IMG/VR virus record: IMGVR_UViG_3300042898_004255
Location: 1-55,909 of that record
DNA length: 55,909 bases
DNA from: a virus
Lineage: Duplodnaviria; Caudoviricetes
Reading direction: 5' to 3' (one strand)
Below, piece by piece: positions 5,582 to 49,279 of this stretch. A program made the position numbers and the translations under genes. The notes under the pieces are model-generated. The model did no database searches. It had not been told where the DNA came from and worked only from the letters and a program-made list of their open reading frames with translations. Position 1 is the stretch's first letter; each line of letters opens with the position of its first letter.

Positions 5582-6394
5582 ATGAATTTAAAGATTGGTT
5601 CAACTGGTGATAATGTAAAAAAATTACAAGTAAAATTACTTTTAAACCCTGACGGTGATTTTGGTATTATAACTGAAACTGCGGTTAAAAAATGGCAAAA
5701 AGAAAATGCTTTAAATCCTGATGGAATAGTGTCAGAAATTGTTTGGAATAAAATGTTCAATATTGTTGTTGAACAAAAATCAACAGGGTCATTAAATTTA
5801 GATAAATTAAAAGGACATGTCCCTATTTCAGTTTTAAATCAAATACCAAATACTATCACAAGTTTTGGTATAAATACACCACTAAGACTTGCACATTTTT
5901 TGGCACAATGTGCACATGAAAGTGGAGGATTTAAATTGGTGCAAGAGAATTTAAATTATAGTGCGAATGGTCTTATGGAAATTTTTGGTAAGTATTTTCC
6001 AACAAAACAACTAGCAGAACAATATCAAAGAAAACCTGTTTTAATAGCATCTAAAGTATATGGTAATAGAATGGGGAACGGTGATGAAAAAACAAAAGAA
6101 GGTTTTAAATTTAGAGGACGTGGGTATATTCAATTAACAGGAAAACAAAACTATACCGCATTCGGAAAATCGATTAATGAGGATATTGTTAGTAACCCAG
6201 ATAAAGTTGCAACACATTACCCCTTATTATCTGCAGCGTGGTTTTTTACCAAAAATGGATTACACAAAATTGCAGATAAAGGAGCAACCAACGCAATTGT
6301 CACACAAATATCGAAAAGAGTAAATGGTGGAACAATAGGTCTAGAAGATAGAATAAAATATTTTAAAAAATTTTATGAGTTATTAAAACCATAG
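5582..6394 (+). CDS. Endolysin: PG-binding domain + GH19 glycoside hydrolase
   Basis: LKIGSTGDNVKKLQ...DGDFG...AVKKWQ PG_binding_1; LAHFLAQCAHESGGF, FRGRGYIQLTG, VNGGTIGLEDR. Confidence 0.92.
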   Translation: MNLKIGSTGDNVKKLQVKLLLNPDGDFGIITETAVKKWQKENALNPDGIVSEIVWNKMFNIVVEQKSTGSLNLDKLKGHVPISVLNQIPNTITSFGINTPLRLAHFLAQCAHESGGFKLVQENLNYSANGLMEIFGKYFPTKQLAEQYQRKPVLIASKVYGNRMGNGDEKTKEGFKFRGRGYIQLTGKQNYTAFGKSINEDIVSNPDKVATHYPLLSAAWFFTKNGLHKIADKGATNAIVTQISKRVNGGTIGLEDRIKYFKKFYELLKP

Positions 6395-10209: not shown

Positions 10210-11304
10210 ATGAATTTAAACGAACAAATATCAAGAATAAAAGAAGTAATGGGGTTAGTTAACGAACAAATAACCTCAACAGGTTATAATTTACCTCAAG
10301 GTCATACTATACCAACATGTACCCAAACGGGTTGTAAGGGAACTTATAGTGGTCCACAATTTAATATAATAGGTACAAATACGGATGGGACTGACAAATG
10401 GAATGACATTGCACATGACTACTCAAATACCATGAGTTATTATGTTGGTGATAAACTAAAAGAATTATATAAACAAGGAATTTATGTTAAAGTAGACCTT
10501 GAAATGATAAAAATGACGGCGTACCCAGTTAAAAATGAAGAAAGTGCAGATCCAACAAAAGTAACTATAGATATACCATTTATTAGAGTAAAAAATAAAT
10601 GCGAAGCATATACTTCATTTGACCATGCAGGTGGGTGGGGGCACTTGCGTATTGATTTAGACAACAGAAAAACACAATTATCATCTGCATTGTTACCTGG
10701 TGAAACATTAGATATTAGTACTTTGAATCAAACAAATAAAACTGATTATAAAACAAGTTTAAATGAGTACTGGATACAATGGAAAAATAAAACTACTCAA
10801 TCTGATTGTGCTAATAATTCAACTAATGTAACCCCACAAACAACAAGTGTAACACCTCAGAAAACTAATGTAACCCCACAAACAACAAGTGTAACACCTC
10901 AGAAAACTAATGTAACCCCACAAACAACAAGTAGTTCATCAAATGGTGAAGAGGTCAAAGTTACTGGTAATGGTATTATAGAGTTAAGAAAAAATATAAT
11001 AAGTAAATCATCAAATGCAAGTATTGATGTAAATAGTATTAAAGTTAATATGGATAAATTTGAAATTTCATATAAATCAGGTCCAACTAAAATAAATAAA
11101 ATTAGTCTTTTTACAAGAAACACTGGTGATGTTAAAGATAGTTCAGGATTTACCACCGCATTAGATAATGTTATATCCCAAAATAAATCTGATAATATTA
11201 CCGTTGAAGTTATTAAACGAGGTTCTATAACAAATTATCCATTCAATGACGGCACAAAAAAATTTAATACAACTCTATATTGGGCGGTTTTATTAATATA
11301 TTAA
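10210..11304 (+). CDS. Hypothetical protein: N-terminal EQISRIKEVM tag, Cys-containing domain, Thr/Pro linker
   Basis: MNLNEQISRIKEVMGLVNE; central HAGGWGH domain; TPQ repeats. Confidence 0.65.
   Translation: MNLNEQISRIKEVMGLVNEQITSTGYNLPQGHTIPTCTQTGCKGTYSGPQFNIIGTNTDGTDKWNDIAHDYSNTMSYYVGDKLKELYKQGIYVKVDLEMIKMTAYPVKNEESADPTKVTIDIPFIRVKNKCEAYTSFDHAGGWGHLRIDLDNRKTQLSSALLPGETLDISTLNQTNKTDYKTSLNEYWIQWKNKTTQSDCANNSTNVTPQTTSVTPQKTNVTPQTTSVTPQKTNVTPQTTSSSSNGEEVKVTGNGIIELRKNIISKSSNASIDVNSIKVNMDKFEISYKSGPTKINKISLFTRNTGDVKDSSGFTTALDNVISQNKSDNITVEVIKRGSITNYPFNDGTKKFNTTLYWAVLLIY
10821..10932 (+). repeat. 42-bp coding tandem repeat (about 2.6 copies; TNVTPQTTSVTPQK)
   Basis: actaatgtaaccccacaaacaacaagtgtaacacctcagaaa repeated. 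Confidence 0.9.
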
Positions 11305-11353
11305 TAAACCATATTTTTTTAAAAAATAAACTATTTATATATAAAAAATTAAA

Positions 11354-11680
11354 ATGAAAAAAGTAATTAGATTAACTGAATCACAATTAAAACAAATGGT
11401 CAAACAAATGATGACGGAAGAATATAGTAAAGAATATTATGACCGTGAATACAGAGAAGGTCCTACAGATGAAGACAAGGAAATGATGAGATTAAAAAAA
11501 GAATTTATTAATCTTGTTAATAAAATGAGGAAAAAGGGGTTCGATTCAATCTCTGATTTCGAGGATTTACTATATGACCAAATACCTGTTGATGATTATG
11601 GTGATTTTTTTGAACCTAAACAATTCTCAAAATTTGGTGGTAAAATAGGTCCAAAATCTCCAGAGTATAGAAGACGATAA
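11354..11680 (+). CDS. LTESQL-tagged hypothetical protein
   Basis: MKKVIRLTESQLKQMVK; TATTTATA at 11332. Confidence 0.65.
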   Translation: MKKVIRLTESQLKQMVKQMMTEEYSKEYYDREYREGPTDEDKEMMRLKKEFINLVNKMRKKGFDSISDFEDLLYDQIPVDDYGDFFEPKQFSKFGGKIGPKSPEYRRR

Positions 11681-11702
11681 AAAAATTAAAACAATTATAA
11701 AT

Positions 11703-11735
11703 AAAAAAACCCTTCAAATTTGAAGGGTTTTTTTT
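11703..11735. terminator. Bidirectional intrinsic terminator
   Basis: A-run, cccttcaa/ttgaaggg hairpin, T-run between convergent genes. Confidence 0.85.
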
Positions 11736-11736
11736 A

Positions 11737-12099
11737 TTATCTTTTTTTACCACAAGATAAACATTTTCTTTTTGATGACGATTCATTCATATCACTATCG
11801 TGTACAGACTTTGGGTTTTCACGGTCATTAAATTCGTCATCTCCATATCTAGAAAATTCATCATCACCATATGTTGAAAATTCGTCATCTTCTTCCATAG
11901 GGAATTCATTATCGTTAAATTCGTCATCTTCTTCCATAGGGAATTCATTATCGTTAAATTCATCATCTTCATCCATATTAGACTGAATTTTTTTAGAAAA
12001 TAAATCATCAAGACTAAATTCATTTTCTTTCAGATTTCTTTTTGTAAAAAGAATATTAGCTTCTTGAATATTCTTTAATTTCGCCAATCTTTTATTCAT
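11737..12099 (-). CDS. Acidic repeat protein
   Basis: EDDEFNDNEFPME / GDDEFS repeats; C-terminal CxxC. Confidence 0.65.
   Translation of the reverse strand: MNKRLAKLKNIQEANILFTKRNLKENEFSLDDLFSKKIQSNMDEDDEFNDNEFPMEEDDEFNDNEFPMEEDDEFSTYGDDEFSRYGDDEFNDRENPKSVHDSDMNESSSKRKCLSCGKKR
11826..11975 (-). repeat. 39-bp and 24-bp coding repeats
   Basis: aattcgtcatcttcttccatagggaattcattatcgtta duplicated. Confidence 0.85.
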
Positions 12100-12121
12100 A
12101 TTAATTTTTAATTAATAAATA

Positions 12122-13309
12122 TTACCAATATTCTAATAAGTTTAATTTGTCCATATATTCTTTTTCGATATCACTAGAAGTTAAGTTACTATAGTCTTTT
12201 GGTATTATACTATATAATTTAGATAATTTTTTATATAATCTTTCAGCATCGAATTTCATTTTGTTTATCATTTTTTCAAATGTTTTTTTAACATTAAGAT
12301 CATCATTATCAGAATACATTAATTTAGAAATATGTTTCGACCATAAATCGTGAATAGATTTGTCATCTAAATCTACACCTAAAGAACCTTGATTAAGTGC
12401 CTTCATAAATTCTTTAGACATACCCGCAATCTGCAATAAAAACAAACCCATTGATTTATTTGTCGCCATGTATATAAAATAATCTGGAACATTAAGATTA
12501 TTTTTTAAATCAAGTCTAACAGATTCAAATAATTTTTCATATGATAAATTCTTCACTTCATTAATTTTCCCATACACATTTGATGACCTAAATTTTTCCA
12601 AAAAATTACTTTGTGTTATTTTTTGACTTAAACATTCAGAATAAAGTTCATTTGGTCGAACTTTACTTTCAACATCATGAATATAATACATTAAAAAACA
12701 AAAATCATTTAAATCACCAGAAAAATCTACCTCATTGTATAAATAATTTGACAAAGAATAGTGTGTTCTATCACTTATTTTAGCATAAGGGTTTAAAACA
12801 TGGTCAATATAATGTTTTAATTCGTGTGACATAGTATCAACATTCATATTTTTTTGAGATATTAAAAAACGAACAAACTCTAAAAATGTGATATTACCAT
12901 CTATAGCATAATTCATATCTAAAACCGCATCACTTTGTGCATCATAAGTTAGTGTTCCTTTTTTACTTAGATTTGTAATATCAGGATTAGTGTTTGACAT
13001 ACTTAAAATCGCAATCGGAACACTCATACCATAAAATGTTGTAAAATTTATTGTAATTCTAACTGTTTTTAGTATGACATCTTGTTTTTCTGTAGGAAAT
13101 ATTTCGTCCATATTTAAAACAAAATAAAGTTTATCAGTATCTCTTATACTAATTTTTGATAAATTTTTACTTTTTACATAATCAATTATTTGACTATATA
13201 GTTTATCAATAATTTTTGTTGATGTTTCAAAAACATTTTCTACCACTCCAACTACCTCATTTAAATTATTAACATTATTAACCATGTTAATCATTGCACG
13301 TATATCCAT
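12122..13309 (-). CDS. Putative zincin-like metallopeptidase
   Basis: SHELKH (HExxH) with downstream E..A/V-type segment. Confidence 0.5.
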   Translation of the reverse strand: MDIRAMINMVNNVNNLNEVVGVVENVFETSTKIIDKLYSQIIDYVKSKNLSKISIRDTDKLYFVLNMDEIFPTEKQDVILKTVRITINFTTFYGMSVPIAILSMSNTNPDITNLSKKGTLTYDAQSDAVLDMNYAIDGNITFLEFVRFLISQKNMNVDTMSHELKHYIDHVLNPYAKISDRTHYSLSNYLYNEVDFSGDLNDFCFLMYYIHDVESKVRPNELYSECLSQKITQSNFLEKFRSSNVYGKINEVKNLSYEKLFESVRLDLKNNLNVPDYFIYMATNKSMGLFLLQIAGMSKEFMKALNQGSLGVDLDDKSIHDLWSKHISKLMYSDNDDLNVKKTFEKMINKMKFDAERLYKKLSKLYSIIPKDYSNLTSSDIEKEYMDKLNLLEYW

Positions 13310-13317
13310 ATTTTTTT

Positions 13318-13815
13318 TTAATCTATATTTATTGTTCCACCGGAGTATTTTTTATCATACCCGTCTCTTATTTGTTTTTCAGATACATCAATTAAATCTT
13401 GTAAAATATCGTTTAGGTCATCCATATCAAGTTGTAGTGTATCTAAATCTGTAAGTAAATCATTTGCTTTACTATAAAATGTTTCTGCTTTAGCATCCAA
13501 ATTATCATTTAAATGGTCATCAAAAAAAGATTCCATAACATCAAAGTATTTTTCCCATTTATTTTTTAATATTTTTTGATTTGCCCTAAACTTTTCAACT
13601 GTTTGTATGTAATAATCCATGTTTTCACAGATATCTGAAATAGTTGTGTTAAATACCACATTATAAACATTATAAATAGATTTTTTTCCACCATCTATAA
13701 GTTTTTCTAAATCAGACACTACTTGTGGTAATGATTCTGGATTATACATAAATTTCATAGAGTCTTCAACTATTCTAATTAAATCACTTGTTTTTAACTT
13801 TATTATTCTTTTCAT
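13318..13815 (-). CDS. Helical hypothetical protein with degenerate ITESQL-type N-terminus
   Basis: MKRIIKLKTSDLIRIVED. Confidence 0.6.
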   Translation of the reverse strand: MKRIIKLKTSDLIRIVEDSMKFMYNPESLPQVVSDLEKLIDGGKKSIYNVYNVVFNTTISDICENMDYYIQTVEKFRANQKILKNKWEKYFDVMESFFDDHLNDNLDAKAETFYSKANDLLTDLDTLQLDMDDLNDILQDLIDVSEKQIRDGYDKKYSGGTINID

Positions 13816-13879
13816 TTATACTTTTATATTGGATAAATATTTAAAAAACCATATTTATACTATATAATGTTAATAAAAT

Positions 13880-15514
13880 ATGAAAATAATAATCACAGAA
13901 TCACAGTTAAATAGGTTAAATGAGGATATAACTGCTGGTAGAATGATTGTTTATCATAGAACCGGAAAAAAAGGATTCAATCCATCTAAAAACATTGCGG
14001 ATGATGGTTATATAGTTAGTATAGGTGCACATTACGGTTATGGTGTTTATACAACATATGACCTTGAGTCCCAAATGGGTGATAAAATGAAGAATAATTA
14101 TGGAAATATTATCATTGAATCTCAGATTATAGATACTAGTAAATTTTTAATTTTTAATTATGACATTGCGAAGAAAATATACAAATCAAGATATCGATTT
14201 ATAGACCAGTTAAAACAAATATTAGGAAAAAAAGAATGGTTAAAATATAAAGATAACGACCCCATAAGAGATATCGATGATACATTGGAAGAAGGAAATA
14301 TAAAATATACATCAAATCTTGCTTATGATTTTTACCAAGAGTTCTACGATTCTATTTTACAAAAACTTAATGGAATGATATTCACAGGTGGGAATGATGG
14401 AAATGTACTAGTATCTTATAATAGAAGAAATATCGAACCATTAAGATATTCTGAAGATGATGGTAAAACCTGGACAAATATTAGAAATGTAAAAACTTAT
14501 CAAAGAATAAAAGAACCAGATGATTATAAAAAAGACCCTGAGTTCCAACATCTTTTAAATAAGATTGAAAATGAACCAAATTTGGGTAGTTATTTTATAG
14601 AAGAAGTACCCTCAAAATATTATGATTATTTATTAAATTATTTTTCAAAAAAAGGTGATAAATTAAATGATAATGAATCTAAAATTATTGATATCATAAA
14701 ACTTATTAAAAAATTTGGTGATTATGATATTTTTAGAATACTTAATAATTCAAAAGATAAAGAACAAACGGCAATAGAAATTCTTGAAATTAATGGTGAT
14801 AGTTTAACTTCTTATGATATACAACTTTTATTATCATATTTTACAATACCAGATAACAAAAGTTTAATAAATATTGATGTTTTAATAATAAAAATTATTG
14901 ATTTAAAAGGTGATAAATTTAATTTCGAAGGTATTAGAGATTTAGTTCAATATTCTGAAGATAAAGACCTTATTGCAACAAAAATTATTGATATAATGAG
15001 TGAAAAATTAGATGGTGATGTTATCGAGATTTTAATGTCTCGTTCAACAGATAAAGAACTTATTGCAACAAAAATTATTGAGAAAAAAGGTAAAGAATTA
15101 CAGAGTATGGATATTAAAAATATTTTACAACGTGCATTTTATTATAACAAAAAAAATAACTCACTTCATTATGGTCATAAAAACATATTAACAAAAATTT
15201 TTGAAATCAAAGGTGATAAATTGAATTATAATGATATTAATGAAATATTAATGTATCCATTAAATAATAATAACGATACATTAATTAAAATTATTCAAAT
15301 AAAAGGTGAAAAATTAATTGATAGGGAAATATATATGTTACTTAATAATTCAAAAGATAAAGAATTAATAAAGAAAACATTATTACAAAATGGTGTTGAT
15401 TATGAATTAATAAATGATGTAATAATTGAAGATGATTTAGATACTCCATTAATACCAGATAATTATCAGTCAATGTTAAATGAAATAAAGAGAATTAAAC
15501 AAATAATAAGATGA
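13880..15514 (+). CDS. ADP-ribosyltransferase-like domain + six helical repeats, with N- and C-terminal tags (paralog A)
   Basis: MKIIITESQL; VYHRT...GY...HYGYGVYTT...YG PARP/diphtheria-toxin-type H-Y core; DKDLIATKII repeats; ends MLNEIKRIKQIIR. Confidence 0.65.
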   Translation: MKIIITESQLNRLNEDITAGRMIVYHRTGKKGFNPSKNIADDGYIVSIGAHYGYGVYTTYDLESQMGDKMKNNYGNIIIESQIIDTSKFLIFNYDIAKKIYKSRYRFIDQLKQILGKKEWLKYKDNDPIRDIDDTLEEGNIKYTSNLAYDFYQEFYDSILQKLNGMIFTGGNDGNVLVSYNRRNIEPLRYSEDDGKTWTNIRNVKTYQRIKEPDDYKKDPEFQHLLNKIENEPNLGSYFIEEVPSKYYDYLLNYFSKKGDKLNDNESKIIDIIKLIKKFGDYDIFRILNNSKDKEQTAIEILEINGDSLTSYDIQLLLSYFTIPDNKSLINIDVLIIKIIDLKGDKFNFEGIRDLVQYSEDKDLIATKIIDIMSEKLDGDVIEILMSRSTDKELIATKIIEKKGKELQSMDIKNILQRAFYYNKKNNSLHYGHKNILTKIFEIKGDKLNYNDINEILMYPLNNNNDTLIKIIQIKGEKLIDREIYMLLNNSKDKELIKKTLLQNGVDYELINDVIIEDDLDTPLIPDNYQSMLNEIKRIKQIIR

Positions 15515-17643
15515 AAATAATAATCACGGAATCACAGTTAAATAAGTTAAATGAAGATATAACTGCTGGTAGAATGATTGTTTATCACAGAACAGGAAAA
15601 AAAGGATTTAACCCATCTAAAAACATTGCGAATGTTGGTTATATAGTTAGTGATGGTGCACATTACGGTTATGGTGTTTACACAACATATGACCTTGAGT
15701 CCCAAATGGGTGATAATATGAAGAACAATTATGGAAATATTATCATTGAATCTCAGATTATAGATACTAGTAAATTTTTAATTTTTAATTATGACATTGC
15801 AAAGAAAATATACAAATCGAGATATAGATTTATAGATCAGTTAAAACAAATATTAGGAAAAAAAGAATGGTTAAAATATAAAGATAATAGTATAATAAAA
15901 AATATAGATTATAGATTAGAACAAGAGAATATAGTATATACATCAAATATTGCTCTTGATTTTTACGGAAGTTTCAAAGATTCTATTTTACAAAAACTTA
16001 ATGGAATGATATTCACAGGTGGAAATGATGGAAATGTACTAGTATCTTATAACAGAAGAAATATTGAACCATTAAGATATTCTGAAGATAATGGTAAAAC
16101 CTGGACAAATATTAGAAATGTAAAAACGTATCAAAGAATAAAAGAACCATATGATTTAAAAAAAGATCCTGAGTTCCAACATCTTTTAAATAAACTTGAA
16201 GTTGACCCTCGTTTTGATATAAAAAACATTCCTTCAAAATATCATGAATATTTATTTAATTTTTTATCAAAAAAAGATAATAGTAAATTAAATCATAATG
16301 AATCTAAAATTATTAAAAACATAGAACTTATTAAAAAATTTGGTTCCTATGATATTTTTGAAATACTTAATAATTCTACAGATAAAAAAGAAACTGCAAT
16401 AGAACTTATTGAAATCGGAGGTGATAGATTAACTTCTATTGAAATTAATACTATACTATTATATTTTACAATACCAGATAACAAAAGTTTGATAAATATT
16501 GATGTTTTAATAATAAAAATTATTGAATCAAAAGGTGAAAATTTACAGTATCAACTTGTAGAAAGTTTACTTGAATATTCAACTGATAAAGACCTTATTG
16601 TTGCCAAAATTATTGAAACAAAAGGTAGAGAATTAAATAGTAACGATATACGTTTTATACTTAAATATTCAACTGATAAAGACATTATTGCAACAAAAAT
16701 TATTGATTTAAAAGGTGAAGAATTGAAACCAGTTGAAATAAATAATTTAATTATGTTATCAAATAATAAAGACCTTATTGCGATAAAAATTATTGATGCA
16801 AAAGGTGATAAATTAGAAATTAGTGAAAATATAAGTCATTTACTTTATGATTCAAAAAATAAAGACCTTATTGTGACAAAAATTATTGACGCAAAAGGTA
16901 AACAATTAACTAATATTGAAATATGGTTATTACTTGATTATACAAAAAAAAATGTTATTAATACAAAGAAACTTATCTCATTTGGATACCTCATTAGTGA
17001 ACAACGATATATGCAGTTAACACCATTATTGCAAAAATATTATAAAAAAATTAGAGGTGTTAGAGGTGTTGCTGGATATATAGATTGGGAATTTAAATAT
17101 TTAACTGATAATGAAAGAATTAAATATATTGATTTAAAAGGTAAAGAATTGTTGCATTCAGAAGATGTAATGTATTTAGTTCGATATTCAACCGATAAAG
17201 ACCTTATTGCATCAAAAATTATTGATGTAAAAGGTGAAGAATTGACATCAGATAATATAAAAGTTTTACTTCTATATTCAGTATCTATAAATAAATCTTA
17301 TAACATTATAATAAAAATTATTAAAACACTAGGTGTGAAATTATATGATGATAATTTAATAGGTAATTTAATTGCACCTATGTTAGATACTGAATATAAA
17401 GACCTTATTATACGAGAAATTATTGATGTAATAGGTAATAAATTAAATAATGTTTATATTCTTTTTTTAGTAGTACTTTCAAATGATAAAGAATTAACAA
17501 AGAAAACATTATTACAAAAGGGTGTTGATTATAAATTAATAAATGATATAATAACAACGAATGAAATAGATACCCCATTAATACCAGATAATTATCAAGA
17601 AATGTTAAATGAAATAAAAAGAATTAAAGAAATAATAAGATGA
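15511..17643 (+). CDS. ADP-ribosyltransferase-like domain + helical repeats (paralog B, chimeric)
   Basis: ART domain near-identical to paralog A; 6 repeats, an internal copy of the array N-module, 3 more repeats, C-terminal tag. Confidence 0.65.
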   Translation: MKIIITESQLNKLNEDITAGRMIVYHRTGKKGFNPSKNIANVGYIVSDGAHYGYGVYTTYDLESQMGDNMKNNYGNIIIESQIIDTSKFLIFNYDIAKKIYKSRYRFIDQLKQILGKKEWLKYKDNSIIKNIDYRLEQENIVYTSNIALDFYGSFKDSILQKLNGMIFTGGNDGNVLVSYNRRNIEPLRYSEDNGKTWTNIRNVKTYQRIKEPYDLKKDPEFQHLLNKLEVDPRFDIKNIPSKYHEYLFNFLSKKDNSKLNHNESKIIKNIELIKKFGSYDIFEILNNSTDKKETAIELIEIGGDRLTSIEINTILLYFTIPDNKSLINIDVLIIKIIESKGENLQYQLVESLLEYSTDKDLIVAKIIETKGRELNSNDIRFILKYSTDKDIIATKIIDLKGEELKPVEINNLIMLSNNKDLIAIKIIDAKGDKLEISENISHLLYDSKNKDLIVTKIIDAKGKQLTNIEIWLLLDYTKKNVINTKKLISFGYLISEQRYMQLTPLLQKYYKKIRGVRGVAGYIDWEFKYLTDNERIKYIDLKGKELLHSEDVMYLVRYSTDKDLIASKIIDVKGEELTSDNIKVLLLYSVSINKSYNIIIKIIKTLGVKLYDDNLIGNLIAPMLDTEYKDLIIREIIDVIGNKLNNVYILFLVVLSNDKELTKKTLLQKGVDYKLINDIITTNEIDTPLIPDNYQEMLNEIKRIKEIIR

Positions 17644-18209
17644 AAATAATAATAACGGAATCACAGTTAAAAAAACTAATAAAAAATAATTTAAATGAAA
17701 ATTTTTTTGATTTTCATTCTATGAATTATGATGACCAAAAAAAAATATATAACATATTTAAAGATTCGTATGAAAAATCTGTTGGTGTTTCTTGGACAGA
17801 AGATAAATTTTTTAACAGATCAAGAAATTGGAAATTTTATGGAGATGAAAATGGTTTTATTTCAATAAGACCTCAAAATTCAGGTTTTTATAAATTGGTC
17901 GGCGTTGCTGGAAGTTTAAAAGGTATTTTAAAAGGTTTAGATTATTTAAATAATCAAGATTATCCAATATGGGGAATGGTTAGTGAAGATATTAAAAATA
18001 TGGCATTAAGAAAAGGTTTTAAGGAACCATCTAAGTCAGAGTTAACAATGTTATACAATAATATTCCTAGTTCAGTATTTGGTGGTGTTGAAACTGAAGT
18101 AAATACTGATGGTAGTCTAACACTGAAATACCCTGATGTTGGAGACACTAAAAAATATTTTATTGCGAATGAAAAATATTTCGATAAGATGAAAAATTTA
18201 AAATATTAA
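17640..18209 (+). CDS. ITESQL-tagged hypothetical protein
   Basis: MKIIITESQLKKLIKNNLNE; ATGA-coupled to paralog B. Confidence 0.65.
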   Translation: MKIIITESQLKKLIKNNLNENFFDFHSMNYDDQKKIYNIFKDSYEKSVGVSWTEDKFFNRSRNWKFYGDENGFISIRPQNSGFYKLVGVAGSLKGILKGLDYLNNQDYPIWGMVSEDIKNMALRKGFKEPSKSELTMLYNNIPSSVFGGVETEVNTDGSLTLKYPDVGDTKKYFIANEKYFDKMKNLKY

Positions 18210-29189: not shown

Positions 29190-31196
29190 TTAAAAAATTT
29201 TCATATGTTCATCTTCAAATTTCAAATTTATAACTTGATTTTCTTTTATATTACCTTTTAAAATTTCGTCAGACAAGAAATCTTCACATAAATTTTGAAT
29301 TATTCTTTTAACGGGACGAGCACCATATTCTTCCATGGTGTTAAGTTTTTCAATTTCATTAAGAACACTTTCATCAAAAGATATTTTATAATTTTTAACA
29401 GAAAGTCTATTCTCAAGTTTTTTAAGTTCAATTTCAATTATCTTTTTAATATCTTCTTTATTTAAGGTATTAAATAATACAATATCATCGATACGATTTA
29501 AAAACTCAGGATTAAATTGTTGTTTTAGAGATTTTTCAACAATAGATTTTTTAATTTGTTCTTTTTGACTTTCACTTGATGATGTAACGAATCCCAATCC
29601 TCCACCAAATTCAGATACTTTTTTGGCACCAACATTTGATGTCATAATTATTATGGTATTAGTAAAATTAACTTTTCTACCAAAAGAATCCGTAAGGTGA
29701 CCTTCATCCATTATTTGAAGAAGAATATTATAAACATCTTTATGTGCCTTTTCTATTTCATCGAATAAAATAACAGAAAAAGGATTGTTTTTAATTTTTT
29801 CTGTTAGTTGTCCACCTTCATCATGTCCAACATACCCTGGAGGTGAACCAATCAAACGAGAAAGATTGTGTTTTTCCATATATTCACTCATATCGACACG
29901 AATCATTTTATTTGAATCACCAAATATTAGTTCTGCGATAGTTTTTGCTAAATATGTTTTACCAACACCAGTTGAACCGATAAAAATAAAAGAACCTATT
30001 GGTCTATTATTTTCTTTAATACCTACTCTATTTCTTCTTATTGACCTAGATATTATTGAAATAGCATCTTTCTGACCAATTATCTTAGATGATAAATTTT
30101 CTTCTAATTTAATTAATTTTTCAGTTTCATTACTATCTAGTTTACTTATAGGTACTCCGGTCATATCTGATACCATTTGATACACATCATCTACTGTAAT
30201 AGGTATTAGACTATCTTTTTGTTTTTCAGACCATTTATTCTTTTCATCTTCAAGTTTAAGTAAAATCTTTCTTTCTTCATCTCTAAGTCTAGCTGCTTGT
30301 TCATAATCCTGTGTTTTTACCACCAATATTTTACTCTCCTTTATTTTTTCAGATTCTTTCTTTAAGTTTTCAATTATATCAGGGATTTTAATATTTGTTT
30401 TTTTATTTGACCCTAATTCATCTAAAACATCAATAGCCTTATCCGGAAATTGTCTATCTGTAATGTATTGTGATGATAAATTTACAATTGTTTCTATAAC
30501 ATCATCACCGTATTTGACTTTATGAAAATCTTGATACACATCTTTTAAGTTTCTCAGTATTAATACTGTCTCATCTTTAGTTGGTTCCTTTAATGTTATT
30601 TTTTGGAATCTTCTAACCAACGCAGAATCTTTTTCTATGTGTTTTTTATACTCATCAAAAGTTGTTGCACCAATACATTGTATTTCACCACGAGCGAGTG
30701 CGGGTTTCAGAATATTTGCAGCATCCATAGATCCACTAGCATTACCAGCACCAACCATTGTGTGTAACTCGTCAATAAAGATAATAATGTTTGGTTCGTT
30801 TTGTAATTCATTTAAAATCGCCTTTATTCTTTCTTCAAACTGTCCCCGATATTTTGTACCGGCAACTAAGGAAGTTAAATCTAATGATAAAATTCTTTTA
30901 TCGATTAAATTAGATGGACAATCTCCTTTAACAATTAATAATGCTAATTTTTCAACTAATACTGATTTACCCACACCAGAATCTCCAACAATGATTACAT
31001 TATTTTTTTTCTTTCTAGAAATAATCTGTGCGATTCTTCTAACTTCAGTATCTCTACCAATAACAGGGTCTATTTTCCCTTCTTCAGCCAATCTATTTAA
31101 ATCTCTAGAGAAATTATCTAAAATTGGTGTCCTAGAACCTTTTTTTCCTTTTTTAAAGGATGTTTGTTGACTTTCGTCGAAATAATCTACTGACAT
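29190..31196 (-). CDS. clpC: ClpC-type AAA+ chaperone lacking the N-terminal domain
   Basis: Two NBDs (GDSGVGKS, GSTGVGKT), GTKYRGQFEER, UVR-type M domain (QDYEQAARLRD), LGF ClpP-docking loop; starts directly at TPILDNF. Confidence 0.9.
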   Translation of the reverse strand: MSVDYFDESQQTSFKKGKKGSRTPILDNFSRDLNRLAEEGKIDPVIGRDTEVRRIAQIISRKKKNNVIIVGDSGVGKSVLVEKLALLIVKGDCPSNLIDKRILSLDLTSLVAGTKYRGQFEERIKAILNELQNEPNIIIFIDELHTMVGAGNASGSMDAANILKPALARGEIQCIGATTFDEYKKHIEKDSALVRRFQKITLKEPTKDETVLILRNLKDVYQDFHKVKYGDDVIETIVNLSSQYITDRQFPDKAIDVLDELGSNKKTNIKIPDIIENLKKESEKIKESKILVVKTQDYEQAARLRDEERKILLKLEDEKNKWSEKQKDSLIPITVDDVYQMVSDMTGVPISKLDSNETEKLIKLEENLSSKIIGQKDAISIISRSIRRNRVGIKENNRPIGSFIFIGSTGVGKTYLAKTIAELIFGDSNKMIRVDMSEYMEKHNLSRLIGSPPGYVGHDEGGQLTEKIKNNPFSVILFDEIEKAHKDVYNILLQIMDEGHLTDSFGRKVNFTNTIIIMTSNVGAKKVSEFGGGLGFVTSSSESQKEQIKKSIVEKSLKQQFNPEFLNRIDDIVLFNTLNKEDIKKIIEIELKKLENRLSVKNYKISFDESVLNEIEKLNTMEEYGARPVKRIIQNLCEDFLSDEILKGNIKENQVINLKFEDEHMKIF

Positions 31197-37014: not shown

Positions 37015-37026
37015 AAATAAAAAATA

Positions 37027-37055
37027 TAAAAGGTGGTTTTTTACCACCTTTTTTT
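37027..37055 (+). terminator. Intrinsic terminator before terminase
   Basis: aaaaggtggt/accacctttt hairpin + T-run. Confidence 0.75.
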
Positions 37056-37067
37056 ATAATTAAAAAT

Positions 37068-42076: not shown

Positions 42077-42763
42077 ATGGAAAAAGAACAGTTATTTAAA
42101 AACGGTAAAATACTTTTAATTGAATATGACGCTGGTCATATCTCACCTAAAGAGAATAAAAAAATAATATCAGAAATGAATGAAACTAATTTTTCTGAAG
42201 ATATTATTTTACACGCCGTTTTACAAAAATTTGATACCCCGAACAAGAATGGTAGAATTTATCCTGAAAGTTTATTAAAAAGAGAAAACGAAAAATATCA
42301 AAGTATAATAAAAAAAGGAGGGGCATTAAATGAATTAAATCACCCGTCGTCCAGTTTAATAGATTTAGATAGAGTTTCACATTCCATAATTGAGACATGG
42401 TGGGATGGTAAAATTCTTTTGGGTAAGATAAAATTATTTACATCTCCGGGTTGGAAAAAAATGGGGATAGTAAGCACTAAGGGAGATCAAGCAGCGATGT
42501 TATTAATGAATGGTGCTACTTTAGGTATTTCATCAAGAGGTGTAGGTTCTTTAAAAAATATAAAAGGACAAAATATTGTACAAGATGATTACGAATTAGT
42601 TTGTTACGATTTAGTTTCATCACCATCAACACCAGGTGCGTATATTTTTAAAAATTTAGAAGATAGAGATAATTACGAAGAATCAATTCAAGAAGTACCA
42701 AAATCAATGGATAGAATGAAAAATTTAATGGGTAACTTAAATAATTTTTTACAAAAAAAATAA
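42077..42763 (+). CDS. Prohead protease (T4 gp21-like)
   Basis: NKNGRIYP, ELNHP, VSH, LGISSRGVGS, DLVSSPSTPGA. Confidence 0.95.
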   Translation: MEKEQLFKNGKILLIEYDAGHISPKENKKIISEMNETNFSEDIILHAVLQKFDTPNKNGRIYPESLLKRENEKYQSIIKKGGALNELNHPSSSLIDLDRVSHSIIETWWDGKILLGKIKLFTSPGWKKMGIVSTKGDQAAMLLMNGATLGISSRGVGSLKNIKGQNIVQDDYELVCYDLVSSPSTPGAYIFKNLEDRDNYEESIQEVPKSMDRMKNLMGNLNNFLQKK

Positions 42764-46752: not shown

Positions 46753-47541
46753 TCATCTCATTATTTCTTTTATCCTTCTTATTTCATGTAACATTTCTTG
46801 ATAATTATCTGGTATTGGTTCAATATAACTAACTCCATCTTTTTCAAAGTTATAATCTCTTATTGTTCTATTTATTAATTTATAATCAACACCATTTTGT
46901 AATAATAATTTTTTTATTAATTCTTTATTTTCTGTAATAATAAATAAATATTTCATATTATATACAGTAAAATAACTTTTATCTATTGTTTTAATAATTT
47001 TTATTGCAATATTATTTTCATTTTGTGAATGTCTAAGAAAAAAAATTATTTTATCACTATTCATGTATTCCATTTTTTCGTTATTTTCGATAATTTTTTT
47101 TATAATATTATCTTTAATATCTGATTCATGAAAATCACTAACTAAAATAGAAATCACGTTATCATCTATTTCATTTAATGTTTCAATAATTTTTGTTGCA
47201 ATAAGGTATTTATCTTTTGAATATTTAAATAATTTATTTGTATATTTATAATCCAATTCTTCACCTTTTGTTTCAATAATTTTTGTTGCAATAATGTCCG
47301 TATTTTCTGAATAATAAAGTAAATATTCTACATCATTATAATCCAATTCATCACCTTTTTTTTCAATATATTTAATTTTCTCATCGTCAGTTAAATATTT
47401 AAATTCCCAACCAAAATATCCAACAACACCTCTCATTCTAATATAAGATTTTTGCAATGATTGAGATAACTGTTTATATTGTTTCTCAGGAATTTGTGAT
47501 CCAGTGTTCACATATCTACTTAATACTTCAGAATATTTCAT
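46753..47541 (-). CDS. Variable helical-repeat protein, array member 6 (4 internal repeats)
   Basis: Constant N-module MKYSEVL.RYVNTG...RMRGVVGY..WEFKYL and C-module LLQNGVDY...IPDNYQEML.EIRRIKEIMR. Confidence 0.85.
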   Translation of the reverse strand: MKYSEVLSRYVNTGSQIPEKQYKQLSQSLQKSYIRMRGVVGYFGWEFKYLTDDEKIKYIEKKGDELDYNDVEYLLYYSENTDIIATKIIETKGEELDYKYTNKLFKYSKDKYLIATKIIETLNEIDDNVISILVSDFHESDIKDNIIKKIIENNEKMEYMNSDKIIFFLRHSQNENNIAIKIIKTIDKSYFTVYNMKYLFIITENKELIKKLLLQNGVDYKLINRTIRDYNFEKDGVSYIEPIPDNYQEMLHEIRRIKEIMR

Positions 47542-48299
47542 CCCATTATTTCTTTTATTCTTTTTATTTCGTTTAACATTGACTGGTAGTTATCAGGTAT
47601 TAACTTGATATTTGAAAAATATTTATTAATAACATCGTTTATTAATTTATAATTAATTCCATTTTGTAATAATAATTTCTTAATTAATTCTTTATCTTTT
47701 GAATATTGAAGTAAATTATGTATATCATCACTTTGTATTTTTTTACCTTTTGTATCAATAATTTTTATTGCAATATCATCTGTATTTTGAGTATATTGAT
47801 AAAGTAAAAAATATATATCATCACTATGTAATGTTTCACCTTTTGTATCAATAATTTTTGTTGCTATAAAATTTTCATTTTGTGAATATTTAAGTAAATG
47901 TAATATTTCATAACTACCCAATTCTTTACCTTTTGTTTCAATAATTTTTGTTGCGATAAGGTCTTTATCATTTTTTGAAATATTCATTAAACCTAATATA
48001 TCATAACTTTCCAATTCTTTACCTTTTGTTTCAATAATTTTTGTTGCGATAAGGTCTTTATTTTCTGAATATTTAAGTAAATTTTCTACATCATTACTTT
48101 TTAATTGTTTACCTTTATTTTCAATAATTTTAATTCTTTTATCATCGGTTAAATATTTAAATTCCCAATCTTTATATCCAACAACACCTCTCATTCTCAT
48201 ATAAGATTTCTGTAATGATACTGACAACCGTTCATATTGTTTCTCAGGAATTTGTAATCCAGTGTTCACATATCTATTTAATACTTCAGAATGTTTCAT
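47538..48299 (-). CDS. Variable helical-repeat protein, array member 5 (4 internal repeats)
   Basis: Same modules; NKDLIATKIIETKGKEL repeats. Confidence 0.85.
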   Translation of the reverse strand: MKHSEVLNRYVNTGLQIPEKQYERLSVSLQKSYMRMRGVVGYKDWEFKYLTDDKRIKIIENKGKQLKSNDVENLLKYSENKDLIATKIIETKGKELESYDILGLMNISKNDKDLIATKIIETKGKELGSYEILHLLKYSQNENFIATKIIDTKGETLHSDDIYFLLYQYTQNTDDIAIKIIDTKGKKIQSDDIHNLLQYSKDKELIKKLLLQNGINYKLINDVINKYFSNIKLIPDNYQSMLNEIKRIKEIMG

Positions 48300-49279
48300 C
48301 TCATTATTTCTTTTATCCTTCTTATTTCATTTAACATTTCTTGGTAGTTATCAGGTATTAATGGGATAGGTAAATCATTTTCAATTATTACATTATTTAT
48401 TAATTTATAATCAACACCATTTTGTAATAATGTTTTCTTTATTAATTCTTTATCATTTGAAATTGATAATAAAAAAACAATTGGTTCATAATTTAATTTT
48501 TTACCTTTTGTTTCAATAATTTTTGTTAAAATAAGGTCTCTTTCATTTTTAAGAGTTATAGCTTCTATAAGTAATTCGAGTATATCTTCATCGGTTAATT
48601 CTTCACCTCTTATCTCAATAATTTTTATTATGATATCATATTTTTTTCTTGAAAAAAGAAGTAAATAAAGTTTCTCGTCTTTAGTTAATTCTCCACTTTT
48701 TACTTTGATAATTTTAGTTATTAAATCATCCATATCTATCAAATCTACATTAACTGGCGCCCTTAAATGGTTTAGAAAAGGAAGAATGATATTAAGATTC
48801 AATTTATCACCTATTATTTCAATAATTTTTGTCGCAATATCATTTTTATTACTTGAATATTGAAGTAGTAGAGTTATATTATCAAAATTTAAATGTATAT
48901 TTTTTACTTCAATTATTTTTTTTATAATATCATCTTTATTAACTGAATAATCTAAAATTTGTTTAATAACATATCCATATAACGAATTTGGATATTCTCT
49001 ACCTATTGTGTCAATAATTTTTGTTGCAATAATATCTATATCATTTGAATATTCAAGTAAATTTTCTACCTCATGATTATTTAACTTATTACCTTTTTTT
49101 TCAATAATTTTAATTCTTTCATCATCGGTTAAATATTTCCATTCCCAATCTTCATATCCAACAACACCTCTCATTCTTTTATAAGATTTCTGTAATGATG
49201 GTGATAAAAGATTATATTGTTCCTCTGGAATTGGTAATCCAGTGTTCACATATCTATTTAATACTTCAGAATATTTCAT
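48296..49279 (-). CDS. Variable helical-repeat protein, array member 4 (6 internal repeats)
   Basis: Same modules. Confidence 0.85.
   Translation of the reverse strand: MKYSEVLNRYVNTGLPIPEEQYNLLSPSLQKSYKRMRGVVGYEDWEWKYLTDDERIKIIEKKGNKLNNHEVENLLEYSNDIDIIATKIIDTIGREYPNSLYGYVIKQILDYSVNKDDIIKKIIEVKNIHLNFDNITLLLQYSSNKNDIATKIIEIIGDKLNLNIILPFLNHLRAPVNVDLIDMDDLITKIIKVKSGELTKDEKLYLLLFSRKKYDIIIKIIEIRGEELTDEDILELLIEAITLKNERDLILTKIIETKGKKLNYEPIVFLLSISNDKELIKKTLLQNGVDYKLINNVIIENDLPIPLIPDNYQEMLNEIRRIKEIMR

Follow-up and report, generated by a model that had tools for sequence, protein, structure and literature searches.

In an uncultured giant T4-like phage, two adjacent genes combine an ADP-ribosyltransferase-fold domain with a short leader resembling a clip-off tag and a helical repeat tail that varies

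We analysed a window of 55,909 nucleotides, the whole stretch of IMG/VR record IMGVR_UViG_3300042898_004255, from an uncultured giant T4-like phage; the record makes up about 18% of the phage genome. Two neighbouring genes in the window each encode an ADP-ribosyltransferase (ART)-fold domain with a variable tail of helical repeats and a brief N-terminal leader that resembles a clip-off tag, and the adjacent third gene carries the same leader. The locus contains the following features.

13852..13859, plus strand: candidate promoter element, octamer TATTTATA, 28 nt upstream of gene 1
13880..15514, plus strand: gene 1, an ORF for 544 aa with leader, ART-like domain, repeats and C-terminal cap (domain limits from model and repeats)
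13880..13924, plus strand: gene 1 leader MKIIITESQLNRLNE, 15 residues, a candidate capsid-targeting/propeptide tag ending Leu-Asn-Glu
13925..14524, plus strand: gene 1 ART-fold domain, about residues 16-215 (from model, fold matches and conservation)
14564..15514, plus strand: gene 1 repeat body and C-terminal cap (30-aa units and the cap common to the array described below)
15511..17643, plus strand: gene 2, an ORF for 710 aa with the same leader and ART-like domain, a longer repeat body and the same C-terminal cap
about 16969-17145, plus strand: gene 2 internal copy of the array N-cap (about residues 487-545)
17640..18209, plus strand: gene 3, leader MKIIITESQLKKLIKNNLNE on a GNAT-fold domain, 189 aa (from model and fold matches)

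Genes 1 and 2 overlap by ATGA, and both products begin MKIIITESQLN[RK]LNE, followed by VYHRT, DGY or VGY, YGYGVYTTY, NYGN and GNDGNVLVSY. The reading frames and motifs thus lie just where an earlier note on this DNA had seen them when it gave both proteins the same leader and a motif-bearing domain of ~200 aa. Over residues 1-228 the two paralogous products are 90% identical (91.7% at the DNA level), and dN/dS between the copies is 0.27; both are therefore under purifying selection. No tRNA genes were found in the window, and Pfam and PHROGs searches of the neighbouring genes returned nothing useful for the finding.

To describe the domain we used an AlphaFold model of residues 1-228 with a 92-row alignment (pLDDT 90.0, pTM 0.86). 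The model has the split beta-sheet of the ART superfamily, with a ~70-residue helical insert (about residues 94-162) between the fourth strand and the last three. Compared all-against-all with 48,161 PDB chains, it matched 29 chains at Z >= 5, with a top Z of 6.2, which is in the range that the tool rates middling. About four-fifths of the 50 best matches listed are ARTs by title, covering PARPs, tankyrases, diphtheria/exotoxin A/cholix-type and pertussis/LT-type toxins, and Rhs/ParT/RES/DarT/Tpt1/Arr entries. The Foldseek check that had been proposed for this domain gave a divided answer: nothing in the PDB at E <= 1e-3, whereas the viral model library (BFVD) returned 8 matches at that threshold, almost wholly ARTs and headed by a PolyVal ADP-ribosyltransferase (6.8e-6) and an ART-PolyVal-like protein (1.7e-5). 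No single PDB match is strong, and the fold call therefore rests on the uniform match list together with the viral library. With ART fold matches in both collections and an invariant His and Tyr, the predicted structure supports assignment of the ~200-aa domain to the ART superfamily, on its His-Tyr (PARP/diphtheria-toxin) side, and so upholds the proposal of a PARP/diphtheria-toxin-type ART-like domain.

Sequence links to named families are sparse. Pfam and PHROG searches of both ART-like proteins gave no family for the domain even at E <= 1; ART-PolyVal (PF18760, cut-off 31.2 bits) had no match by hmmscan at E <= 1 and none in a six-frame search of the window at E <= 10, and the query domain, which has no conserved Glu, does not match PARP (PF00644, cut-off 26.7 bits). 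Some relatives come nearer. Two of 46 long relatives exceed the Pfam PARP cut-off, on their N-terminal half (the His-Tyr region) only, four of 92 shorter ones reach PARP at E <= 0.01 (best 21.8 bits), and one of the 92 reaches Tox-ART-HYD1 with 24.7 bits against a cut-off of 25. In a language-model look-up, 9 of 30 matches fell in one cluster set; in its top cluster (score 0.91), 29% of the members carry PF18760. Searched against PDB sequences, the domain gave chance-level phmmer rows only (a designed repeat protein and IpaD), and the family profile found PARP10 alone, at E 1.3, as a motif-level alignment of YH.T ... YG.G.Y.

The candidate active site is strongly conserved. His26 (13955-13957), in YHRT, is present in 147 of 147 aligned rows, and Tyr57 (14048-14050), in YG.G.Y, in 149 of 149, a pair that fits the His-Tyr-[Glu/Asp/Gln] clade, in which strand 1 supplies the His and strand 2 the Tyr of the predicted NAD pocket. 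Gly53 and Gly55 are kept in 147 and 144 of 149 rows, and Arg27, beside His26, in 137 of 147. The alignment holds no conserved Glu that could serve as the catalytic residue; Glu80 (IIIES) was considered and rejected, since its column holds Lys more often (78 of 149 rows) than Glu (59). Instead, Asp173 (14396-14398) is found in 143 of 151 rows, within GNDGNVLVSY and directly before strand 174-179, and position 175 is Lys, Arg or Asn. A published survey assigns the H, Y and D of the polyvalent-protein ART family to strands 1, 2 and 5, respectively, and describes an H-Y-D site for phage polyvalent-protein ARTs and Tox-ART-HYD toxins (PMC5512222). An hhalign comparison of the family profile with one ART-PolyVal-like stretch (relative P0007) aligned only 25 columns, in the His region, with a probability of 45%, and we therefore infer that Asp173 is the strand-5 Asp from its place before strand 174-179. 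A tblastn search with the P0007 stretch, made to collect true ART-PolyVal sequences from GenBank phages, found none. The earlier note had read GNDGNVLVSY as the strand of the usual catalytic Glu and supposed that the chemistry may be atypical; the strand carries Asp173, and an H-Y-D pattern is already on record for such ARTs (PMC5512222). The chemistry is thus less odd than it first seemed.

The ART-like domain family comprises 673 metagenome clusters at 50% identity, with relatives down to about 30% identity. None was found in GenBank phages (tblastn, 50,697 records; blastn with the region likewise gave none), and scanning viral and metagenome sequences with the domain brought up nothing beyond one short, near-identical contig and matches to the leader alone. 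The domain is N-terminal in 141 of 150 relatives and is followed by at least 100 aa in 108 of them, with Pfam-recognised tails of several kinds (WG_beta_rep, LRR, ankyrin, DUF4116, Fib_succ_major), so the proposed build of enzyme head and exchangeable tail finds support at family level. One relative, P0004, is 78% identical and has the same build as the 710-aa protein.

In the window, the repeat tails have counterparts in a gene array of their own.

46753..51340, minus strand: six tandem paralogs of 163-327 aa, each with an N-cap, 1 to about 6 30-aa repeats and the C-terminal cap, without an enzyme domain

The repeat unit has ~30 residues and the consensus.i..LLkYS.NKDlIATKIIEtKGkeL..., with 38 anchor matches in the eight proteins (two ART-like, six array), 30 of them non-cap units. 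The C-terminal cap, DKELIKKTLLQNGVDY.LIN...PLIPDNYQ.MLNEI.RIK.I[IM][RG], is nearly the same in the six array genes, and a blastn comparison of both tails with the array produced 105 matching segments at 67-88% identity. Consensus, cap and blastn together bear out the idea that tails and array have repeats and C-cap in common, and on this sequence evidence the likeness is homology, not chance. Recent gene conversion between tails and array was rejected: there is no near-identical stretch, the best being 87.7% over 179 nt. The 710-aa protein contains the internal copy of the array N-cap at about residues 487-545; its gene unites, in one frame, an ART-repeat gene and a gene of array type. The array repeat family spans 98 metagenome clusters, none with a Pfam domain. 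In the six array proteins and two tails, Pfam found no known repeat family (ankyrin, LRR, TPR, DUF4116 and others) at E <= 1; a repeat protein had no match among PDB sequences and no usable match in an Atlas look-up. A resemblance of the repeat to DUF4116 is an impression only.

Gene 3 was modelled with a pLDDT of 88.9, and all 50 listed PDB fold matches are GNAT acetyltransferases (Z up to 10.2), with 24 Foldseek matches at E <= 1e-3. Of 150 relatives of the ART-like domain, 14 carry this GNAT-fold domain in fusion with it, and one relative of the gene 3 protein is fused to a NUDIX domain. In polyvalent proteins a GNAT typically adjoins this ART (PMC5512222). The description given by the ART-PolyVal authors, an H-Y-D site with a GNAT neighbour, thus matches what is found here, with the equivalence of the Asp taken from its position.

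The leader is common to unrelated proteins, on three adjacent genes here and on 35 groups elsewhere. MKIIITESQ is encoded in at least 132 viral-contig stretches, and we took statistics from 80 loci among them. Those loci hold 92 instances, 90 of which have an upstream stop no more than 28 in-frame codons away, and 75 leader-bearing bodies form 35 BLASTP groups (at least 35 unrelated groups overall). The nonapeptide occurs in 43 synonymous DNA versions, so it is the peptide and not the DNA that is conserved. On other contigs leader-bearing genes form arrays, and relatives carry two further leader types, a second (NEQI.RIK..MGL.E) and a third (IKKLLREGL). The repeat proteins have a look-alike of the second type at their C-terminus.

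In the model, leader residues 1-14 have a pLDDT below 50. The Glu of the hydrophobic-x-Glu (h-x-E) motif falls at residue 15 in 33 of the 75 leader-bearing proteins, and 19 have no h-x-E in residues 10-22. Glu15 is conserved in 124 of 136 cases, also where the ART-like domain is internal, so it may belong to the fold and not to a cleavage site. The T4 prohead protease cuts after Leu/Ile-x-Glu; by that specificity, the end of the leader is a candidate site for such a protease, and an enzyme of this type is encoded among the head genes of the phage.

38897-40702: T4-like portal, on one side of the prohead protease
42077..42763, plus strand: T4-type prohead serine protease, which would remove the leader (Pfam Peptidase_S77, E 7.5e-20, 71.7 bits against a cut-off of 27)
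44164-45882: Gp23-type capsid protein, on the other side of the protease from the portal

Four known systems resemble this locus. ART-PolyVal, grouped with Tox-ART-HYD2 by Iyer et al. 2017 (PMC5512222), has in common with our domain the ART fold, the best viral structure matches, a first-strand His, a second-strand Tyr, an Asp close to the catalytic strand and the GNAT association, besides phage origin and predicted delivery with the virion. The domain here differs in that the Pfam model does not match it, a helical insert splits it, it stands N-terminally, preceded by a short leader, and not within a giant protein of many enzymes, its fusion partner is a 30-aa repeat not described before and it lacks a relative in the GenBank phage records. 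With the PARP catalytic domain and diphtheria-toxin-type ARTs it has the fold and the YH.T ... YG.G.Y motif pair in common; unlike them it is without the catalytic Glu, it misses the Pfam model and its Z is only about 6.

T4 Alt is a head-packaged, protease-processed, injected ART. Our proteins may have the same life cycle of synthesis alongside the head proteins, prohead loading, protease trimming and injection, and the phage encodes T4-type portal, protease and capsid proteins. We rejected membership of the T4 Alt/VIP2 (Arg-Ser-Glu) family, however: the conserved residues are His, Tyr and Asp, and no sequence or Pfam link to that family appeared, whereas Alt is placed on the RSE side of the superfamily (PMC9503650). 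The leader itself recalls the capsid-targeting sequence of T4 IPI-III. That sequence is a short N-terminal peptide, the sole common part of T4 internal proteins (PMC3012670), as the leader is among its carriers. Both end in hydrophobic-x-Glu. The leader differs in sequence, in length (15 residues against 10 in T4) and in standing on at least 35 protein groups across many uncultured phages.

With an ART fold, a repeat tail and a leader, the products of both genes resemble a type of host-modifying protein already known from phages, here in a form that is new and lacks annotation. It is an evenly balanced proposition, in our judgement, that genes 1 and 2 encode paralogous host-modifying ART-fold effectors with an H-Y-D site, target-binding repeats, leader-directed packaging and injection. 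The H-Y-D domain would most likely bind NAD+ and transfer ADP-ribose to a host macromolecule, and the 30-residue repeat tail, which differs between the copies and comes from a family expanded in the phage, most likely binds a target or partner. The leader, ending Leu-x-Glu like the T4 capsid-targeting sequence, most likely loads the protein into the prohead, where the T4-type protease would then cut it off, so that the ART-like enzymes and their GNAT-fold neighbour with the same leader could enter the next host with the DNA. We infer loading and cleavage from the T4 analogy, the prohead protease in the window and the many proteins that bear the leader; frequent packaging of phage ARTs in the head, above all in myoviruses, has been argued for (PMC9503650).

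The packaging step invites a different view, possible if doubtful, in which the proteins act unpackaged inside the infected cell and the leader is a shared partner-binding helix, or is kept for efficient translation starts and cassette recombination. Some 20 kb separate the genes from the head module, and their neighbours have no known function; between the 15511 and 17640 junctions the DNA of the C-cap codons, the ATGA overlap and the leader codons is conserved, and this would likewise help cassettes to be shuffled. Yet retention of one peptide through so many synonymous versions on so many unrelated groups, its disorder in the model, an h-x-Glu at a fixed distance and an encoded T4-type protease argue for a capsid tag, with a T4 precedent point by point. 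We think it unlikely that the substrate is something other than a host protein chosen by the repeats, such as NAD+ for degradation (as for MbcT/RES-type enzymes), DNA or RNA for ADP-ribosylation (DarT) or RNA 2'-phosphates (Tpt1), although such an activity could blunt NAD-dependent host defence. MbcT (Z 6.1), NatT, RES, DarT1 and Tpt1 score in the same Z range as PARPs, Arg27 adjoins His26 in nearly all rows, and the NUDIX fusion of one GNAT relative recalls viral ADPr-targeting proteins, which include Nudix proteins (PMC9503650). Set against this, the best viral fold matches and the H-Y-D residues point to polyvalent-protein ARTs, counted as protein-modifying by their describers (PMC5512222), and the long extensions after the domain are, where Pfam names them, binding-type (LRR, ankyrin, WG_beta_rep), which fits a macromolecular target better than a small molecule.

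Highly unlikely, finally, is a catalytically dead fold that serves as a binding module only. The missing Glu and the helical insert would suit such a pseudo-PARP, and two pseudo-PARPs, TASOR (Z 6.0) and PARP13 (Z 5.9), rank with the best matches and score as well as active enzymes. Pseudo-PARPs have usually lost the His-Tyr pair, Gly and Asp-type residues, whereas here the pair is invariant and both Gly of Y-G-x-G-x-Y and Asp173 persist in 95-99% of rows, to about 30% identity. The reading as packaged host-modifying effectors might be carried further, to a retargetable kit in which the leader, the H-Y-D ART 'warhead' with its GNAT partner and a fast-varying repeat 'aiming' module are recombined among themselves, a distinctly unlikely extension. 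The six free-standing repeat genes would be a donor pool, contributing through the conserved cap and leader junctions, and the 710-aa protein, with a whole array-type gene in frame, would be an example caught in the act. Injected enzymes could in that case be re-aimed at new targets as hosts change.

Head-packaged ARTs beyond T4 Alt are so far mostly predictions from comparative genomics (PMC5512222, PMC9503650). This locus offers a compact testable case: a small domain in which His26, Tyr57 and Asp173 are the candidate catalytic residues, a leader that lends itself to removal tests in E. coli with a protease of known type, and a natural pair of variants whose main difference is the repeat tail. 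The locus also puts on the map a family that no Pfam model reaches from the query and that is absent from GenBank phages, and links it to a leader that, in large uncultured phages, stands on dozens of protein families. Should this leader be a capsid address, the proteins that bear it would list what these phages inject.

The octamer TATTTATA is the reverse complement of the T4 late-promoter octamer TATAAATA. We rejected TATAAATA itself as a late promoter of the ART-like genes: it is present in the window, but not ahead of them. The case for TATTTATA as a promoter element is weak, in a genome of ~75% A+T where the octamer occurs 45 times on both strands together; of 62 genes, 13 have it on the coding strand no more than 60 nt upstream, the portal and a scaffold-like gene included.

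Two adjacent genes in the window encode proteins with the same plan, a short leader followed by an ADP-ribosyltransferase (ART)-like domain, a repeat tail and a cap, and a third gene follows directly:

13880-15514 (+): gene 1, 544 aa, leader, ART-like domain, repeat tail and cap
15511-17643 (+): gene 2, 710 aa, the same leader and ART-like domain, a longer tail and a cap
17640-18209 (+): gene 3, 189 aa, a protein with a GNAT-fold model

Open reading frames and sequence comparison confirmed in all details the layout of leader, domain, repeats and C-cap that the earlier note had given for genes 1 and 2. The two are joined by an ATGA overlap and share the leader MKIIITESQLN[RK]LNE. The domain of ~215 residues is 90% identical between the two proteins; in the DNA of this region, identity is 91.7% and dN/dS is 0.27, which indicates that selection maintains both copies. 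The tails consist of 30-residue units (consensus.i..LLkYS.NKDlIATKIIEtKGkeL...) in which a framework of Ile15, Lys18, Ile19 and Ile20 is nearly invariant and positions 1, 3, 4, 7, 10 and 28-30 are highly variable. Both tails share their C-terminal cap (...DKELIKKTLLQNGVDY.LIN...PLIPDNYQ.MLNEI.RIK.I..) with an array of six tandem repeat-protein genes at 46753-51340 (-), and at the DNA level tails and array gave 105 matching segments of 67-88% identity. A copy of the array N-terminal cap lies inside the 710-aa protein, at about residues 487-545: its gene is fused in frame to one of array type. The same architecture recurs in a metagenomic relative (P0004) of 78% identity. The 30-residue repeat matched no Pfam family, PDB sequence or Atlas cluster. 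Repeat proteins that stand alone make up a family with 98 clusters, none of them named, and several members often share one long contig.

The ART-like domain had no relevant Pfam match at E <= 1, no PHROG match and, by tblastn, no relative in 50,697 GenBank phage records. Searched exhaustively, 1.84 billion cluster representatives yielded 673 relatives at E <= 1e-3, 332 of them at E <= 1e-10. The structure model, made from a 92-row alignment (pLDDT 90.0, pTM 0.86; pLDDT below 50 at residues 1-14 only), has strands at 21-28, 56-59, 77-83 and 89-91, a helical insert at about 94-162 and further strands at 165-170, 174-179 and 185-191. Of 48,161 PDB chains compared by VIA, 29 matched this model at Z >= 5 but no chain reached Z 8; the scores lie in a range that VIA rates "middling" by its own scale. 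Its best 50 rows were, with few exceptions, ART-superfamily proteins, headed by the Rhs toxin TreX (Z 6.2), MbcT (6.1) and the TASOR pseudo-PARP (6.0); among the matches listed were PARP1-4, 10, 13, 15 and 16, tankyrases, diphtheria toxin and its homologues, exotoxin A, cholix, ParT, pertussis-type toxins, Tpt1, DarT1 and Arr. Foldseek returned nothing from the PDB at E <= 1e-3, although PARPs dominated its list. A viral model library gave eight matches at E <= 1e-3, the top two annotated as PolyVal ADP-ribosyltransferase (6.8e-6) and ART-PolyVal-like (1.7e-5). The ART-type domain proposed in the earlier note is borne out by VIA and the viral library, in which fold searches on the model return mostly ARTs, and at the level of the predicted structure we regard the ART fold as established.

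Links by sequence agree with the fold, and placement of the domain within the ARTs is approximate. The Pfam PARP cut-off was passed by 2 of 46 long relatives, on the His-Tyr half; among 92 shorter relatives, four reached PARP at E <= 0.01 and one reached Tox-ART-HYD1, scoring 24.7 bits where the cut-off is 25. PARP10 motifs align with the family-profile stretch vivYHRT...gF...YGkGiY, only at E 1.3. The Pfam ART-PolyVal model had no match in the window even at E <= 10, a result to which the ~70-residue insert may contribute.

Conservation was counted over 151 aligned rows, with the rows aligned at each column as denominator. His26 (147/147), Tyr57 (149/149) and Gly165 (151/151) are joined by Gly53 (147/149), Gly55 (144/149), Tyr74 (145/149), Gly75 (147/148), Gln110 (142/151), Asp173 (143/151), Gly174 (143/151) and Pro187 (144/149). 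No column across the 151 rows holds a conserved Glu, and position 175, a possible site of a PARP-like Glu, is Lys, Arg or Asn. Glu80 (in IIIES) was considered as the catalytic Glu and rejected, since 78 rows have Lys in this column and 59 have Glu. For want of a catalytic Glu, atypical chemistry had been suspected, but a His-Tyr-Asp site is already described: according to excerpts of PMC5512222, the ARTs of phage polyvalent proteins carry His in strand 1, Tyr in strand 2 and Asp in strand 5, and Iyer and colleagues group this family with Tox-ART-HYD2. A later survey, likewise in excerpt, names an HY-[EDQ] clade (PMC9503650). Strand 174-179 of our model begins directly after Asp173, which by its position would be the equivalent of the strand-5 Asp; profile comparison with the ART-PolyVal-like stretch of one metagenomic relative (P0007) aligned just the His region.

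The closest known system by proposed mechanism is T4 Alt, whereas by fold and active site it is the ART of polyvalent proteins. Because genes 1 and 2 have His-Tyr-Asp where T4 Alt has Arg-Ser-Glu, their domain is not an Alt relative; it also fails the Pfam models of both ART-PolyVal and PARP, and the most fitting description is a divergent branch, so far unannotated, of the His-Tyr-Asp phage ARTs. The architecture is new: a short leader precedes a split ART domain and a new repeat tail, the two genes are tandem paralogs, and the GNAT partner is encoded separately. Frequent head packaging of phage ARTs and their company with GNATs are already published; what is fresher here is the leader system, together with the repeat family.

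Of 150 relatives, 141 have the ART-like domain at the N-terminus; at least 100 residues follow it in 108, and 31 consist of the domain only. Tails recognised by Pfam (WG_beta_rep in five, LRR in two, and ankyrin, DUF4116 and Fib_succ_major in one each) are, as annotated, binding-type repeats, and the 30-residue repeat of genes 1 and 2 occurs in 6 of the 150. Domain position and tail variety together imply that the family as a whole pairs an enzyme head with exchangeable binding tails, which supports at family level the idea of a head with an interchangeable tail raised for these two genes. The tail may choose the substrate.

Gene 3 overlaps gene 2 by ATGA, and its protein also begins MKIIITESQL, with a leader that closes in LNE at residue 20. 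This protein had no Pfam match; its model (pLDDT 88.9) gave 24 Foldseek matches at E <= 1e-3, and all 50 PDB matches listed were GNAT acetyltransferases, with Z up to 10.2. The gene 3 domain is fused before or after the ART-like domain in 14 of the 150 best relatives, and one of 39 stand-alone relatives of the gene 3 domain carries a NUDIX domain. In polyvalent proteins, one GNAT family typically adjoins that ART within the same polypeptide (PMC5512222, in excerpt). Fold, fusions and this precedent imply that genes 1-3 form one cassette on a known theme.

The window, an entire IMG/VR virus record of 55,909 bases, represents an estimated 18% of its genome, which implies a phage genome of roughly 300 kb; its G+C content is about 25%. 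It includes these genes of a T4-type head module:

37011-38840: terminase
38897-40702: Gp20-type portal (E 3e-75)
42077-42763: T4-type prohead protease, Peptidase_S77 (E 7.5e-20)
44164-45882: Gp23-type capsid protein (E 1.8e-72)

The capsid protein is distant from every cultured phage: its best matches were in an uncultured 484-kb phage, at 31% identity, and in Flavobacterium phages, which reach 40% over half of the protein. Its Gp23 domain is confined to residues 305-556 of 572, leaving an N-terminal extension of ~300 residues. The phage also encodes a ClpB/Hsp104-type double AAA+ protein at 29190-31196 (-) (AAA_2 3e-69, ClpB_D2-small, phrog_4871), and an endolysin-like gene at 5582-6394 has PG_binding_1 and Glyco_hydro_19 domains.

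A scan of viral contigs found at least 132 stretches of DNA encoding MKIIITESQ, and leader statistics were drawn from 80 loci among them, holding 92 instances (77 distinct). An in-frame stop lies no more than 28 codons upstream of 90 of the 92, so these leaders lie at gene starts, and since there are 43 synonymous versions of the nine codons, it is the peptide rather than the DNA that is conserved. With the first 18 residues removed, the 75 leader-bearing proteins of at least 60 aa fell into 35 BLASTP groups. Four to ten consecutive leader-type genes run together in other contigs, and the window has further related leaders at 11354-11680 (MKKVIRLTESQL), 13318-13815 (MKRIIKLKTSDL) and elsewhere. 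ART-like and GNAT relatives bear other leaders (NEQI.RIK..MGL.E; IKKLLREGL), which mostly close in hydrophobic-x-Glu directly before the domain.

The T4 prohead protease cuts after Leu/Ile-x-Glu. Hydrophobic-x-Glu occurs inside residues 10-22 in 56 of the 75 leader-bearing proteins, with Glu at residue 15, as in genes 1 and 2, in 33; Glu15 is present in 124 of 136 ART-like rows and the motif in 20 of 30 GNAT rows. Glu15 could instead belong to the domain fold rather than to a cleavage site. In T4, a capsid-targeting sequence is the sole feature common to the internal proteins and loads them into the scaffolding core (PMC3012670, in excerpt). Given the leader data, this precedent and the T4-type protease in the window together, loading and trimming is the most likely role of the leader: it would load the protein into the prohead, and the protease would then trim it off.

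Leader-type N-termini occur on six genes within 10210-18209 (at 10210, 11354, 13318 on the minus strand, 13880, 15511 and 17640), which suggests an island of genes with such leaders; the starts of 52692-53675 and 53683-54453 are similar. The C-terminal ends of all eight repeat proteins (..MLNEI[RK]RIK[EQ]I[IM][RG]) resemble one N-terminal leader type:

46753-51340 (-): leader-like C-termini of the array genes
15460-15514 (+): leader-like C-terminus of gene 1
17590-17643 (+): leader-like C-terminus of gene 2

That type is N-terminal on gene 10210-11304 (MNLNEQISRIKEVMGLVNEQ, at 10210-10270) and on ART-like and GNAT relatives such as MNLNEQIKKMKKAMGLNES, and C-terminal in some GNAT relatives. 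The leader-like C-terminus may be a second address or a docking helix usable at either end.

One metagenomic relative, P0007 (963 aa), has in one polypeptide a GNAT-like domain, the ART-like domain of genes 1 and 2, helical repeats and one further domain, which is ART-PolyVal-like (24.6 bits, below cut-off). Leu-x-Glu motifs separate its domains, an arrangement that would fit a polyprotein cleaved by the head protease. A 180-aa MKIIITESQ-bearing ORF on another viral contig (L009) reads ...SFLYHGSNIKNLDSIKRFGL... soon after its leader, which resembles the His motif of PARP-type proteins but would belong to another family; this ORF did not match the ART-like family profile. Residues 1418-1604 of PDB 9k3a chain B, an internal virion protein of the cyanophage A4 pre-ejectosome, matched the ART-like model at Z 5.4, and 9k3a was its first Foldseek row (E 0.014). 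The main text of the paper on 9k3a does not contain 'ADP-ribosyl'; the match hints weakly at an ART-like domain in a packaged ejection protein. Finally, 13 of 62 genes have TATTTATA on their coding strand, 11-55 nt upstream (sites include 13852, 38886 and 42815), among them the ART operon, the portal, a scaffold-like gene and the endolysin-like gene. This octamer is a candidate promoter element, but the genome is very A+T-rich.
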